Assembly (NCBI RefSeq): GCF_024502345.1
Contig: NZ_JALDNN010000001.1
Strand: one strand, 5' to 3'
Source: Escherichia coli
GTDB taxonomy: Bacteria; Pseudomonadota; Gammaproteobacteria; Enterobacterales; Enterobacteriaceae
DNA: 64,000 bases
A program made the translations under genes and the position numbers. The number at the start of each line of letters is the position of its first letter. Within the stretch, counting starts at the first letter, position 1. Positions 38,930-43,079 of the stretch are shown here, piece after piece. Under the pieces are notes generated by a model. It did no database searches. It had not been told where the DNA came from and saw nothing but the letters and a program-made list of their open reading frames with translations.

Positions 38930-40114
38930 TTAAACGGGCTGCCCCTGATGCGACATCCGCGTCGCCAGCGGCAGCCAGCACAGCACGATCAACAATCCCA
39001 TTAAGGTCATCAATAACCCCAGGCTACCCTGACCGGTTTGCGGCAACATCGCAGAGAGCGACGCCAGCACGCCGGAACCAATGTTTTGCAGACCGCCGAC
39101 CAGCGCGCCAGCCGTGCCCGCCAGGAAGGGGAACGGCTCCATCGCGCCGCTGGTCGCCAGCGGAAACAGCATCCCGGCACCGAAAAAGAACAGCGCGGCG
39201 GGAACGAGCAGCGTCCAGACATTCATCACGCCAAACCAGTCGGGGATCCACATCAGCAAGCCAGCCAGCAGGCAGCAGATAACCGACTGCCACATTAACG
39301 TGGAGAAGCGTTTATTGGGACGTCCGGCAAACCATGCGCCAAAAAACGCTGCCGGAATCGGCAGAATAAACAAAATACTGACCGTCATACTGCTCAGCCC
39401 TAACACCGCGCCCATCAGCACGCCGGAGCAGGCTTCAAAGGCGGCAATCCCGGCCAGACCGCCAATCAGCATCAGCAAATAACAGTTAAAACCGCTGTTA
39501 CCGAAAAGCGTTTTATAACTGGTAAGCAGGCGCGTGCGCGGTGCATCGACAGGACGCGTTTCCGGCATCCAGCGGGCCATACTGAAGGTCACACCAGCAC
39601 AAAGAACCAACAAAAAGAGATAACAGGCGCGCCAGTTCCACATCGTATCCAGCAGACCGCCGATTAGCGGTGCGAGCAACGGACTGACGAGAATCCCCAT
39701 GTTTAACAGGCTGTTAGCATGGCGCAACTGTGTCCGTTCATATAAATCTCGCGGCAAAGTACGCGCCATTACGCCGCCAACGCCGGTGCCCATCCCCTGC
39801 ATCGCGCTGGCGGCAATCAACACCGTCAAACTGGAGGTCGTGACCGCGACCAGCGTTGCCAGCATAAAAATGGACATTCCGACGAGGATCACCGGTCGGC
39901 GACCCACACGGTCGGAAATCGGGCCATAAAACAGCTGTGAGACACCGTAAGTCAGCAGATAAGCGCCCATTACGCTCTGCACCGCCCCTTCACGGACGTT
40001 GAGATCGCGCGCCATATCGGCAATAGCTGGAATATAAATGGTTTGCGCCATCTGACCGACGGCCACGAGTAATACCAACATCAATAACAAATTGACGTTT
40101 CTATGCCTTTTCAT
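38930..40114 (-). CDS. emrD: MFS multidrug efflux transporter EmrD
   Basis: Start at MKRHRNVNLLLML (ATG 40112-40114). Confidence 0.9.
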   Translation of the reverse strand: MKRHRNVNLLLMLVLLVAVGQMAQTIYIPAIADMARDLNVREGAVQSVMGAYLLTYGVSQLFYGPISDRVGRRPVILVGMSIFMLATLVAVTTSSLTVLIAASAMQGMGTGVGGVMARTLPRDLYERTQLRHANSLLNMGILVSPLLAPLIGGLLDTMWNWRACYLFLLVLCAGVTFSMARWMPETRPVDAPRTRLLTSYKTLFGNSGFNCYLLMLIGGLAGIAAFEACSGVLMGAVLGLSSMTVSILFILPIPAAFFGAWFAGRPNKRFSTLMWQSVICCLLAGLLMWIPDWFGVMNVWTLLVPAALFFFGAGMLFPLATSGAMEPFPFLAGTAGALVGGLQNIGSGVLASLSAMLPQTGQGSLGLLMTLMGLLIVLCWLPLATRMSHQGQPV

Positions 40115-40274
40115 TATCACGGATGCTTTTATAAAAATAATTAGAATAAGTCACTACGCATTCCCATAAATGCGGGAGAGGAATCTATCACATTGATGAA
40201 TGCTAGCCAGATATGTGCCGGGAATGGCGAAAAGCAAAACGGCAGAATATGTAAACAAAAGCGGCAATAAATGT

Positions 40275-40420
40275 TGCCGGAAGGGATTACGTGCGAACTG
40301 TAACCCTCTCCCTGAAAGGGCGAGGGGGAAACCACCGTTCCCTTTCAGAAAATGAGCTAAACATTGCACGGGACGGTCCCCTCGCCCCTTTGGGGAGAGG
40401 GCTAGGGTGAGGGGCACAGG
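40275..40420. repeat. GC-rich inverted-repeat intergenic element (family unassigned)
   Basis: ccctctccctgaaagggcgaggggg (about 40305-40329) and its near reverse complement cccctcgcccctttggggagaggg (about 40377-40400) flank a roughly 50-bp spacer. Confidence 0.4.
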
Positions 40421-40477
40421 CAGCGCAGGTGCAAACATTCTGCTGGTAGAAGAAGCCCCCAACTCCAACCCGCACGC

Positions 40478-40510
40478 TAAATATAAAAGGGGAGCGGTTA
40501 CCCGCTCCCC
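40478..40510 (-). terminator. intrinsic terminator of tisAB transcript
   Basis: Hairpin ggggagcggttacccgctcccc with an adjacent T-rich run on the minus strand, just downstream of tisB stop. Confidence 0.55.
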
Positions 40511-40532
40511 TTTGGTGCGACTTGAATCTGAA

Positions 40533-40622
40533 TTACTTCAGGTATTTCAGAACAGCATCAAGCAGTTGCAGTGCTGCAACAATGAGTTTGAGGATAAGAA
40601 TGGCGATATCCACCAGGCTCAT
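40533..40622 (-). CDS. tisB: type I toxin TisB (29 aa, SOS-induced membrane peptide)
   Basis: Minus-strand translation MSLVDIAILILKLIVAALQLLDAVLKYLK then stop; below ORF track cut-off. Confidence 0.85.
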   Translation of the reverse strand: MSLVDIAILILKLIVAALQLLDAVLKYLK

Positions 40623-40724
40623 ACGCGTCTCCTGTGGTTCAGGAGCACTGCCAGCTGACGTACCTTTCCGCTGCCTGTTGCCAGCTGTTGTGCACGCGGT
40701 ATCTCAAGGAGAAACGTTGTGCTT

Positions 40725-40745
40725 GTTGACATAACACAGTGTGCT
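40725..40745 (-). promoter_or_regulatory. predicted IstR-1 pairing site in tisAB mRNA leader
   Basis: 21-nt stretch gttgacataacacagtgtgct is identical at 20 of 21 positions to the 5' end of istR-1 (40983-41003), so the minus-strand transcript is complementary to IstR-1; about 100 nt upstream of tisB start. Confidence 0.5.
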
Positions 40746-40856
40746 CACGCGGGGTTAAGGCGCTGACGGCACCACCCGTTTCAGCCAGGACTTAGTGCGC
40801 CGGGTAACGATGCGGCCCCCGCATAACACATTGCGTACAGTGATATTATAGAAGTT

Positions 40857-40876
40857 TGCTGTATAAATAAACAGTA
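40857..40876. promoter_or_regulatory. LexA box (SOS operator)
   Basis: tgctgtataaataaacagta matches the CTGT-N8-ACAG consensus; located between divergent tisAB and istR. Confidence 0.7.
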
Positions 40877-40982
40877 ATTTTTGGACAAAACGCAAACTGT
40901 GATCGATACTCAACTATGTACTAAATACGTCAAAATTCGTGCCGAAATTGCGCGTTCTGCGCGGAACAGGTATACTTTCAGT

Positions 40983-41057
40983 GTTGACATAATACAGTGT
41001 GCTTTGCGGTTACCAGCCGCAGGCGGCTGACGAAACCTCGCTCCGGCGGGGTTTTTT
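40983..41057 (+). ncRNA. istR: antitoxin sRNA IstR-1
   Basis: 75-nt unit ending in a T-run terminator (41052-41057), preceded by a tatact -10 at 40971-40976; divergent from tisB. Confidence 0.65.
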
Positions 41058-41186
41058 GTTACCTGCAATTCAGTGCAAAACGTGATCAACCCCTCAATTT
41101 TCCCTTGCTGAAAAATTTTCCATTGTCTCCCCTGTAAAGCTGTGCTTGTATAAATATTGTTAAACACAAAACCAACAAGGTCCCCA

Positions 41187-41285
41187 ATGACTACTTCCAT
41201 GTTCAACGCAAAACTACTACCAACTGCGCCATCCGCCGCAGTGGTCGTCGTGCGTGTGGTGGTGGTCGTCGGCAATGCGCCGTAG
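41187..41285 (+). CDS. ivbL: ilvB operon leader peptide (32 aa)
   Basis: Translation MTTSMFNAKLLPTAPSAAVVVVRVVVVVGNAP then stop; Val/Leu-rich regulatory run; below ORF track cut-off. Confidence 0.85.
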   Translation: MTTSMFNAKLLPTAPSAAVVVVRVVVVVGNAP

Positions 41286-41312
41286 GGACTGGAACAACAC
41301 ACGATTCCAAAA

Positions 41313-41342
41313 CCCCGCCGGCGCAAACCGGGCGGGGTTTTT
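41313..41342 (+). terminator. ilvBN attenuator terminator
   Basis: Hairpin ccccgccggcgcaaaccgggcgggg followed by T5, between ivbL and ilvB. Confidence 0.6.
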
Positions 41343-41390
41343 CGTTTAAGCACCTCCCGGAAAGTCGGCCCAGAAGAAAAGGACTGGAGC

Positions 41391-43079
41391 ATGGCAAGTT
41401 CGGGCACAACATCGACGCGTAAGCGCTTTACCGGCGCAGAATTTATCGTTCATTTCCTGGAACAGCAGGGCATTAAGATTGTGACGGGCATTCCGGGCGG
41501 TTCTATCCTGCCTGTTTACGATGCCTTAAGCCAAAGCACGCAAATCCGCCATATTCTGGCCCGTCATGAACAGGGCGCGGGATTTATCGCTCAGGGGATG
41601 GCGCGCACCGACGGTAAACCGGCGGTCTGTATGGCCTGTAGCGGACCGGGTGCGACTAACCTGGTGACCGCCATTGCCGATGCGCGGCTGGACTCCATCC
41701 CGCTGATTTGCATCACCGGTCAGGTTCCCGCCTCGATGATCGGCACCGACGCCTTCCAGGAAGTGGACACCTACGGCATCTCTATCCCCATCACCAAACA
41801 CAACTATCTGGTCAGACATATCGAAGAACTCCCGCAGGTCATGAGCGATGCCTTCCGCATTGCGCAATCAGGCCGCCCAGGCCCGGTGTGGATAGACATT
41901 CCTAAGGATGTGCAAACGGCAGTTTTTGAGATTGAAACACAGCCCGCTATGGCAGAAAAAGCCGCCGCCCCCGCCTTTAGCGAAGAAAGCATTCGTGACG
42001 CAGCGGCGATGATTAACGCTGCCAAACGCCCGGTGCTTTATCTGGGCGGCGGTGTGATCAATGCGCCCGCACGGGTGCGTGAACTGGCGGAGAAAGCGCA
42101 ACTGCCTACCACCATGACTTTAATGGCGCTGGGCATGTTGCCAAAAGCGCATCCGTTGTCGCTGGGTATGCTGGGGATGCACGGCGTGCGCAGCACCAAC
42201 TATATTTTGCAGGAGGCGGATTTGTTGATAGTGCTCGGTGCGCGTTTTGATGACCGGGCGATTGGCAAAACCGAGCAGTTCTGTCCGAATGCCAAAATTA
42301 TTCATGTCGATATCGATCGCGCAGAGCTGGGTAAAATCAAGCAGCCGCATGTGGCGATTCAGGCTGATGTTGATGACGTGCTGGCGCAATTGATCCCGCA
42401 GGTGGAAGCGCAACCGCGTGCAGAGTGGCACCAGTTGGTAGCGGATTTGCAGCGCGAATTCCCGTGTCCAATCCCGAAAGCGTGCGATCCATTAAGCCAT
42501 TACGGCCTGATCAACGCCGTTGCCGCCTGTGTCGATGACAATGCGATTATCACCACCGATGTGGGTCAGCATCAGATGTGGACCGCGCAAGCTTATCCGC
42601 TCAATCGCCCACGCCAGTGGCTGACCTCCGGTGGGCTGGGCACGATGGGTTTTGGCCTGCCTGCGGCGATTGGCGCGGCGCTGGCGAACCCGGATCGCAA
42701 AGTGTTGTGTTTCTCCGGCGACGGCAGCCTGATGATGAATATTCAGGAGATGGCGACCGCCAGTGAAAATCAGCTGGATGTCAAAATCATTCTGATGAAC
42801 AACGAAGCGCTGGGGCTGGTGCATCAGCAACAGAGTCTGTTCTACGAGCAAGGCGTTTTTGCCGCCACCTATCCGGGCAAAATCAACTTTATGCAGATTG
42901 CCGCCGGATTCGGCCTCGAAACCTGTGATTTGAATAACGAAGCCGATCCGCAGGCTGCATTGCAGGAAATCATCAATCGCCCTGGCCCGGCGCTGATCCA
43001 TGTGCGCATTGATGCCGAAGAAAAAGTTTACCCGATGGTGCCGCCAGGTGCGGCGAATACTGAAATGGTGGGGGAATAA
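41391..43079 (+). CDS. ilvB: acetolactate synthase I large subunit
   Basis: 562-aa thiamine-diphosphate enzyme ORF downstream of ivbL. Confidence 0.95.
   Translation: MASSGTTSTRKRFTGAEFIVHFLEQQGIKIVTGIPGGSILPVYDALSQSTQIRHILARHEQGAGFIAQGMARTDGKPAVCMACSGPGATNLVTAIADARLDSIPLICITGQVPASMIGTDAFQEVDTYGISIPITKHNYLVRHIEELPQVMSDAFRIAQSGRPGPVWIDIPKDVQTAVFEIETQPAMAEKAAAPAFSEESIRDAAAMINAAKRPVLYLGGGVINAPARVRELAEKAQLPTTMTLMALGMLPKAHPLSLGMLGMHGVRSTNYILQEADLLIVLGARFDDRAIGKTEQFCPNAKIIHVDIDRAELGKIKQPHVAIQADVDDVLAQLIPQVEAQPRAEWHQLVADLQREFPCPIPKACDPLSHYGLINAVAACVDDNAIITTDVGQHQMWTAQAYPLNRPRQWLTSGGLGTMGFGLPAAIGAALANPDRKVLCFSGDGSLMMNIQEMATASENQLDVKIILMNNEALGLVHQQQSLFYEQGVFAATYPGKINFMQIAAGFGLETCDLNNEADPQAALQEIINRPGPALIHVRIDAEEKVYPMVPPGAANTEMVGE

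Follow-up and report, generated by a model that had tools for sequence, protein, structure and literature searches.

Leader-peptide attenuators precede many biosynthetic operons of the Enterobacteria, and ilvL (of ilvGMEDA), leuL, hisL, thrL, pheL and trpL all follow the same logic. Each has a short translated ORF rich in codons for the end product of its pathway, a set of 1:2, 2:3 and 3:4 alternative hairpins, and an intrinsic terminator ahead of the first biosynthetic gene. The ivbL leader of the ilvBN operon shares this arrangement, but the sequences of the other leaders are unrelated to it, and, unlike ilvL, it senses valine and leucine and has no isoleucine codons. The K-12 ivbL attenuator goes back to Friden, Newman and Freundlich (1982), as cited in PMC3783181 and PMC6123439, and passages in PMC6123439, PMC3783181 and PMC11347164 that cite the 1982 work describe the operon as controlled by attenuation. 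In reporter experiments, a K-12 ivbL leader-gfp fusion was repressed by added valine and leucine, and replacing the leucine codons in the fusion abolished the leucine response (PMC11187965).

Here we describe the corresponding locus in the window, the 64,000-nt stretch of E. coli DNA that was analysed. We assign the feature, at about 96% probability, to the E. coli ivbL-ilvBN operon as its ivbL leader, a transcription attenuator that works through the translating ribosome and responds to charged tRNA-Val and tRNA-Leu. The coordinates of its parts and of the neighbouring genes are collected in Table 1.

Table 1. Features of the ivbL leader and the downstream operon (window coordinates)
Feature	Position	Strand	Basis or remark
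Candidate promoter -10 element TATAAAT, just upstream of the 5'UTR	41149-41155	+	putative, as is the transcription start
CA-rich 5' untranslated leader AAACACAAAACCAACA, probable GcvB-contact region	41161-41176	+	read from sequence; PMC11347164
Shine-Dalgarno sequence AAGG, 6-nt spacer to the ivbL ATG	41177-41180	+	read from sequence
ivbL leader ORF, 32 codons plus TAG, MTTSMFNAKLLPTAPSAAVVVVRVVVVVGNAP	41187-41285	+	ORF translation; RefSeq ivbL; NF007579; PF08049
Regulatory Leu codons 10-11 (CUA CUA)	41214-41219	+	CUACUA kept in 23 of 24 aligned leaders; CUACGA in Proteus penneri
Hairpin A, ACUGCG...CGCAGU, within the coding region	41223-41242	+	compensatory change at synonymous sites
Regulatory Val run, codons 19-28 (GUG GUC GUC GUG CGU GUG GUG GUG GUC GUC)	41241-41270	+	third positions nearly invariant across species
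Segment 1, probable protector 5' strand (Val-Arg-Val codons, GUGCGUGU...G)	41250-41262	+	consensus fold
Segment 2, holds the stop codon	41270-41287	+	41270-41281, partner of segment 1 in the consensus fold (probable protector); 41276-41282 and 41285-41287, antiterminator partners of segment 3
Small hairpin UGGAAC...GAUUCCA in the spacer, lying within the antiterminator	41290-41308	+	covaries, with three pairs changed on both sides
Segment 3, terminator 5' arm (41309-41321) and antiterminator 3' strand (41314-41316 and 41319-41325)	41309-41325	+	CCCCGCCGGCG invariant in 25 of 25 sequences
Segment 4, terminator 3' arm (41328-41341), U tract from 41338 (UUUUUCGUU)	41328-41346	+	folding; alignment
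ilvB, acetolactate synthase I large subunit, 562 aa	41391-43079	+	NF006016, 1089 bits (cut-off 870); RefSeq annotation
ilvN, acetolactate synthase I small subunit, 96 aa	43083-43373	+	NF006036, 185.5 bits (cut-off 128); RefSeq annotation

Identity of the leader and its genomic setting

The original prediction had placed an ivbL leader and attenuator upstream of ilvBN at 41187-41342, and these coordinates proved right, with RefSeq identity and protein family models in agreement. A 421-nt query spanning 41000-41420, and thus including the leader, matched five RefSeq E. coli chromosomes at 100% identity, and the same query found the region in 5418 of the 5426 complete E. coli genomes. In the matching records the leader is labelled "ivbL: ilvB operon leader peptide IvbL", ilvB and ilvN come next, and the gene order is yidF-emrD-ysdE-tisB-(istR)-ivbL-ilvB-ilvN. 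In the window, both acetolactate synthase genes score above their own equivalog cut-offs and lie immediately downstream of ivbL in the same orientation and the same order as in RefSeq. The likeness to K-12 MG1655 ivbL (b3672) is close: 340 of 343 bases are identical, segments 1-4 and the terminator are unchanged, and the locus order emrD - tisB/istR - ivbL - ilvB - ilvN - uhpA is the same. Both leaders have the 32-codon ORF, the valine run and the paired CUA codons. The three differences from K-12 are two upstream bases, at 41062 and 41075, and a CTC to TTC change at codon 6 that replaces leucine with phenylalanine (L6F).

The leader ORF runs from an ATG at 41187-41189 to a TAG at 41283-41285 and encodes a 32-residue peptide, MTTSMFNAKLLPTAPSAAVVVVRVVVVVGNAP. 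This peptide matches the NCBIfam equivalog model NF007579 along its entire length (residues 1-32 of 32; 80.1 bits, cut-off 60) and the Pfam IlvB_leader model PF08049 (75.7 bits against a cut-off of 25). A 32-codon leader with a run of Val and Leu codons had been claimed earlier, and it is indeed present, including the quoted motif AAVVVVRVVVVVG. Nine of the ten codons from 19 to 28 specify valine (GUG or GUC), with a single arginine codon, CGU, between them, and codons 10 and 11 are both the rare leucine codon CUA. These codons are intact: apart from the common L6F allele the leader equals K-12 ivbL, and its peptide passes both family models. The ORF had also been reported missing from the ORF track, which is so for no other reason than its length, below 60 aa. 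When ORFs were listed with a minimum of 20 aa, ivbL appeared inside a 42-aa TTG-initiated ORF at 41157-41285. A chance ORF was considered and ruled out by conservation across the related leaders, in which the Shine-Dalgarno-like purines and the start codon are also conserved. CCCC follows directly 3' of the AAGG, and the CCC just ahead of the start codon is kept in most related leaders.

The codon 6 polymorphism, at window position 41201, reduces the number of leucine codons from the three of K-12 to two. We asked how common each allele is using 46-mers: the Phe allele (TTC) matched 3240 of 5426 complete E. coli genomes and the K-12 allele (CTC) matched 2174, so the window carries the majority allele. 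In other genera residue 6 is L, M, N, Q or others, and because it varies in this way, position 6 is not a conserved sensing codon. We also considered L6F as a disabling mutation and rejected this, as it is the majority allele and leaders with two leucine codons are normal in other genera. Since relatives carry two to four leucine codons, the two found here lie inside the natural range.

Upstream of the ORF, a consensus promoter scan did not call the ilvB promoter. The sequence CGTGATCAACCCCTCA at 41081-41096 is a weak CRP-like half-palindrome with three mismatches, about 70 bp upstream of the likely ilvB transcription start. A search for such matches found 190 in the window against 210 expected from shuffles. 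CGTGATCAACCCCTCA can therefore be put forward only as a candidate for the published cAMP-CRP site, and the search itself gives no evidence for that site. Near the Shine-Dalgarno sequence, GGUCCC could pair with GGGACU at 41285-41290, perhaps occluding the ribosome-binding site in an untranslated leader.

We searched 39500-42500 against Rfam at E<=1, and no leader family was matched. The only strong match nearby was istR (RF01400, 144.8 bits, 40928-41057, plus strand), part of the tisB/istR type I toxin-antitoxin locus that lies just upstream of ivbL; the tisB ORF (40533-40622, minus strand) encodes MSLVDIAILILKLIVAALQLLDAVLKYLK. A 22-nt direct repeat, TGTTGACATAA[C/T]ACAGTGTGCT, occurs at 40724-40745 and 40982-41003 with 95% identity between its copies. 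One copy lies inside istR and the other in the region upstream of tisB. Since tisB lies on the opposite strand, the tisAB mRNA is complementary to IstR at this repeat, the known antisense pairing site. Between emrD and tisB there is also a 27-nt inverted repeat (40301-40327 and 40378-40404), whose arms are 85% complementary and separated by 50 nt. It overlaps ysdE, a 24-aa gene annotated in RefSeq (about 40283-40357), and resembles a repeat element of intergenic DNA; the spurious ORFs that cross it yield ...SPKGRG... motifs when translated.

Alternative pairings in the leader transcript

A strong terminator hairpin had been proposed ahead of ilvB, and its energy, z-score, shuffle comparison and position all bear this out. 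The hairpin occupies 41309-41341; its 13 pairs are interrupted by a single bulged G and close a 6-nt loop, and UUUUUCGUUU comes after it. Its stem is formed by AAAACCCCGCCGG and CCGGGCGGGGUUUU, 23 bases past the stop codon, and the U tract comes next; the G+C-rich hairpin with its U tract (41309-41342) ends 49 nt short of the ilvB start at 41391. The predicted energy is -21 to -24 kcal/mol (z = -4.15 against dinucleotide shuffles), and none of 200 shuffles was as stable. A simple consensus terminator scan did not call this hairpin, presumably owing to the bulged G. On the minus strand, two sub-threshold Rfam matches at 41300-41368, to STnc310 (21.4 bits) and Pseudomonas P6 (20.6 bits), do not represent a gene. 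They arise because the attenuator terminator is symmetric, reading as an A-run, a hairpin and a U-run.

The competing antiterminator pairs U41276-G41282 with C41319-A41325 and G41285-G41287 with C41314-C41316. In isolation it has a predicted energy of -21.9 kcal/mol, comparable to that of the terminator. It draws on six stem bases of the terminator (C41314-C41316 and C41319-G41321) and four loop bases, and because of these shared bases the two structures are mutually exclusive. Folding accordingly predicts exclusive terminator and antiterminator hairpins, and these, together with the intact leader codons and the conservation described below, support the original prediction of a classic Val/Leu attenuation arrangement. 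The whole leader folds at -73.3 kcal/mol (z = -4.13).

The protector pairing was derived from an RNAalifold consensus of leaders cut at the position corresponding to 41300. In this consensus, 41250-41262 paired with 41270-41281 at -8.7 to -10.3 kcal/mol, and hairpin A and a CUAC:GUAG closure also formed. In the window's own minimum free energy (MFE) structure, the valine run instead pairs with the start of the ORF (AUGACUACU with GGUGGUCGU) and not with segment 2. An alternative CUACUA:UGGUGG pairing fits equally well as CUAC:GUAG, and the two are not distinguishable. Because the leader's own MFE differs and this alternative fits equally, the exact protector is the least secure element of the model. 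The pairing nonetheless offers a possible rationale for the arginine codon in the valine run, which may serve to supply a GCG that pairs with the GCGC of segment 2.

To place these structures relative to translation, we masked a 30-nt ribosome footprint at successive positions. On the complete leader, equilibrium folding gave the terminator a probability of 0.69-0.88 at every ribosome position. A kinetic switch would be expected to behave in this way, and the preference does not tell the models apart. Since full-leader equilibrium cannot show a switch, we used nascent transcripts ending at 41324 or 41327, that is, before the terminator 3' arm. In the transcript to 41327, masking the footprint left the antiterminator complete with the A site on valine codons 19-26, eroded it at codons 27-28, and abolished it with the ribosome on the stop codon (41283-41285), which sits within segment 2, the 5' strand of the antiterminator. 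With no ribosome on the transcript ending at 41327, the antiterminator was still the MFE structure. Equilibrium folding alone therefore fails to reproduce the switch, and the model depends on kinetic ordering.

Barrier estimates from findpath speak to this ordering with varying reliability. The barrier from antiterminator to terminator was estimated at 17.9 kcal/mol. Those toward the antiterminator were strongly model-dependent, at 9.2 kcal/mol from the MFE protector and 0.6 kcal/mol from the consensus protector. A path starting from the ribosome state gave 11.0 kcal/mol, an artefact of long-range 5'UTR pairing retained in the start structure.

Conservation across Enterobacterales

We scanned a collection of species-representative genomes for the codon pattern VVVRVVVVV with third positions left free. 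Among the 120 stretches returned, 24 were short ORFs ending VVVRVVVVV(V)GxAP-stop, with GNTP in one. They came from Enterobacter, Citrobacter, Kluyvera, Klebsiella-like genomes, Cedecea, Phytobacter, Pseudescherichia and E. albertii, and also from Serratia, Yersinia, Proteus, Providencia, Morganella and Budvicia. Every one of the 24 leaders has an ilvB homologue 100-200 nt downstream. The peptides are 31-34 aa long, nearly all with LL at positions 10-11, and contain 2-4 leucine and 8-12 valine codons.

Conservation in these leaders is strongest at the nucleotide level. CUACUA, the third positions of the valine run, the arginine codon CGU, GCGCCGUA(AC)GGG and CCCCGCCGGCG are all invariant or nearly so, and in leaders with a UAA stop instead of UAG an inserted AC keeps the GGG. 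At fourfold-degenerate third positions the leader has an identity of 0.92, against 0.48 for ilvB from these genomes. This difference places the constraint on the RNA or on codon choice, beyond the peptide alone.

The alternative structures are conserved in the same alignment. With RNAalifold, full-length leaders gave the terminator as their consensus, and leaders truncated ahead of segment 4 gave the antiterminator. For the eight core pairs of the antiterminator, 100% of cells are paired, and for the terminator 94.6% of cells across 24 distinct sequences; the strands of both are invariant, so this is conservation only and not covariation. Covariation appears elsewhere in the leader. In hairpin A, the pair 41225:41240 occurs as C-G (13 sequences), U-A (6) or A-U (1), and these truly compensatory changes fall at synonymous third positions of Thr and Ala codons. 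Together, the protector, hairpin A and the CUAC:GUAG closure are paired in 97.8% of cells against 18-62% in slid controls, an advantage that is inflated because the structure was derived from the same sequences that were scored. Protector helix 4 alone is paired in 95.9% of cells, with one-sided, wobble-compatible changes.

These data bear on a simpler account of the region, namely that the hairpin serves simply as a constitutive terminator or insulator, or else marks the 3' end of an independent small RNA encoded between istR and ilvB, the valine-rich ORF being incidental and untranslated. Such an element would be consistent with the terminator hairpin always being favoured in equilibrium folding, with the weak, terminator-like small RNA matches that the symmetry of the hairpin gives on the minus strand, and with the listing of an ivbL terminator 3' end in a Term-seq study. 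However, istR has its own terminator at 41035-41057, and no other ilvB promoter is evident in the 49 nt past the hairpin. The ORF has a properly spaced Shine-Dalgarno sequence, and its length, its Val and Leu codons and the stop inside segment 2 are kept in the 24 genomes while the N-terminal residues drift. Moreover, the K-12 leader answers to valine and leucine in reporter fusions. We therefore regard a plain terminator as extremely improbable and retain ribosome-mediated attenuation. The ORF and its identity with ivbL, the potential for the three alternative pairings and their conservation, and the footprint geometry are all shown by this analysis, and, apart from the exact protector pairing, which is uncertain, every computable defining feature of a leader-peptide attenuator was found.

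Proposed mechanism and significance

Ribosome coupling, the order of kinetic folding and the response in vivo are modelled here on the established mechanism and on the K-12 experiments. The leader transcript would be about 185 nt long, with a ribosome translating the 32-codon ORF close behind RNA polymerase. When Val-tRNA and Leu-tRNA are plentiful, the ribosome would reach the UAG at 41283-41285 and cover segment 2 (41276-41287). Segment 3 could then pair only with segment 4, so that the terminator would form and transcription would stop before ilvB. When Val-tRNA is scarce, the ribosome would stall in the run of nine valine codons (41241-41270), leaving segment 1 single-stranded and segment 2 free. 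As segment 3 leaves the polymerase, the free segment 2 would pair with it, through GGG:CCC and UGCGCCG:CGGCGCA, and by taking six bases of the terminator stem this antiterminator would let the polymerase read through into ilvBN. In the absence of translation, segments 1 and 2 would be expected to pair first, as the protector, and the terminator would then form.

A stall at the CUA leucine codons (41214-41219) is predicted to have the same outcome by an indirect route. The 3' half of hairpin A would thereby become available for pairing with segment 1, which would leave the antiterminator strand free. Pairing of the leucine codons with the stop region (CUAC:GUAG) or with valine codons (CUACUA:UGGUGG) could be an undescribed relay from leucine stalling to antitermination. 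In a similar vein, the leader may carry more RNA-level information than the textbook three-hairpin model holds, and L6F may tune leucine sensitivity among lineages; we regard these readings, the relay included, as speculative and unlikely extensions of the model.

Control of the operon might instead be dominated by post-transcriptional regulation, with the small RNA GcvB and RNase E acting on the ivbL 5'UTR and the ivbL-ilvB spacer and outweighing tRNA sensing. One study lists ivbL as a GcvB target with a predicted GcvB site in the 5'UTR near the AUG, and it places RNase E cleavage sites between ivbL and ilvB (PMC11347164). In the window, the 5'UTR at 41161-41176 is CA-rich, and in the MFE structure GGUCCC, part of which lies in the 3' half of the Shine-Dalgarno sequence, pairs with GGGACU past the stop codon. 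Nevertheless, the GcvB mechanism was called uncorroborated by its own authors (PMC11347164). Regulation of this kind would be a layer added to attenuation and not an alternative to it, and it leaves the Val/Leu codon run, the overlap between antiterminator and terminator, and the invariance of both unexplained. Its dominance over tRNA sensing is thus very unlikely, and we favor attenuation by charged tRNA-Val and tRNA-Leu as the primary control.

We conclude that this is an already known attenuator, which in the window is intact, correctly placed and ordinary, and which carries the majority L6F allele. As ivbL has been known since 1982, is a textbook example and is found, with annotation, in essentially all E. 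coli genomes, the significance of finding it here is mostly that of correct annotation. What is gained is a map of the alternative hairpins at the level of coordinates for this allele. Additionally, the strong nucleotide conservation of the leader across Enterobacterales and the L6F polymorphism are of minor interest to those engineering Val/Leu biosensors from ivbL.
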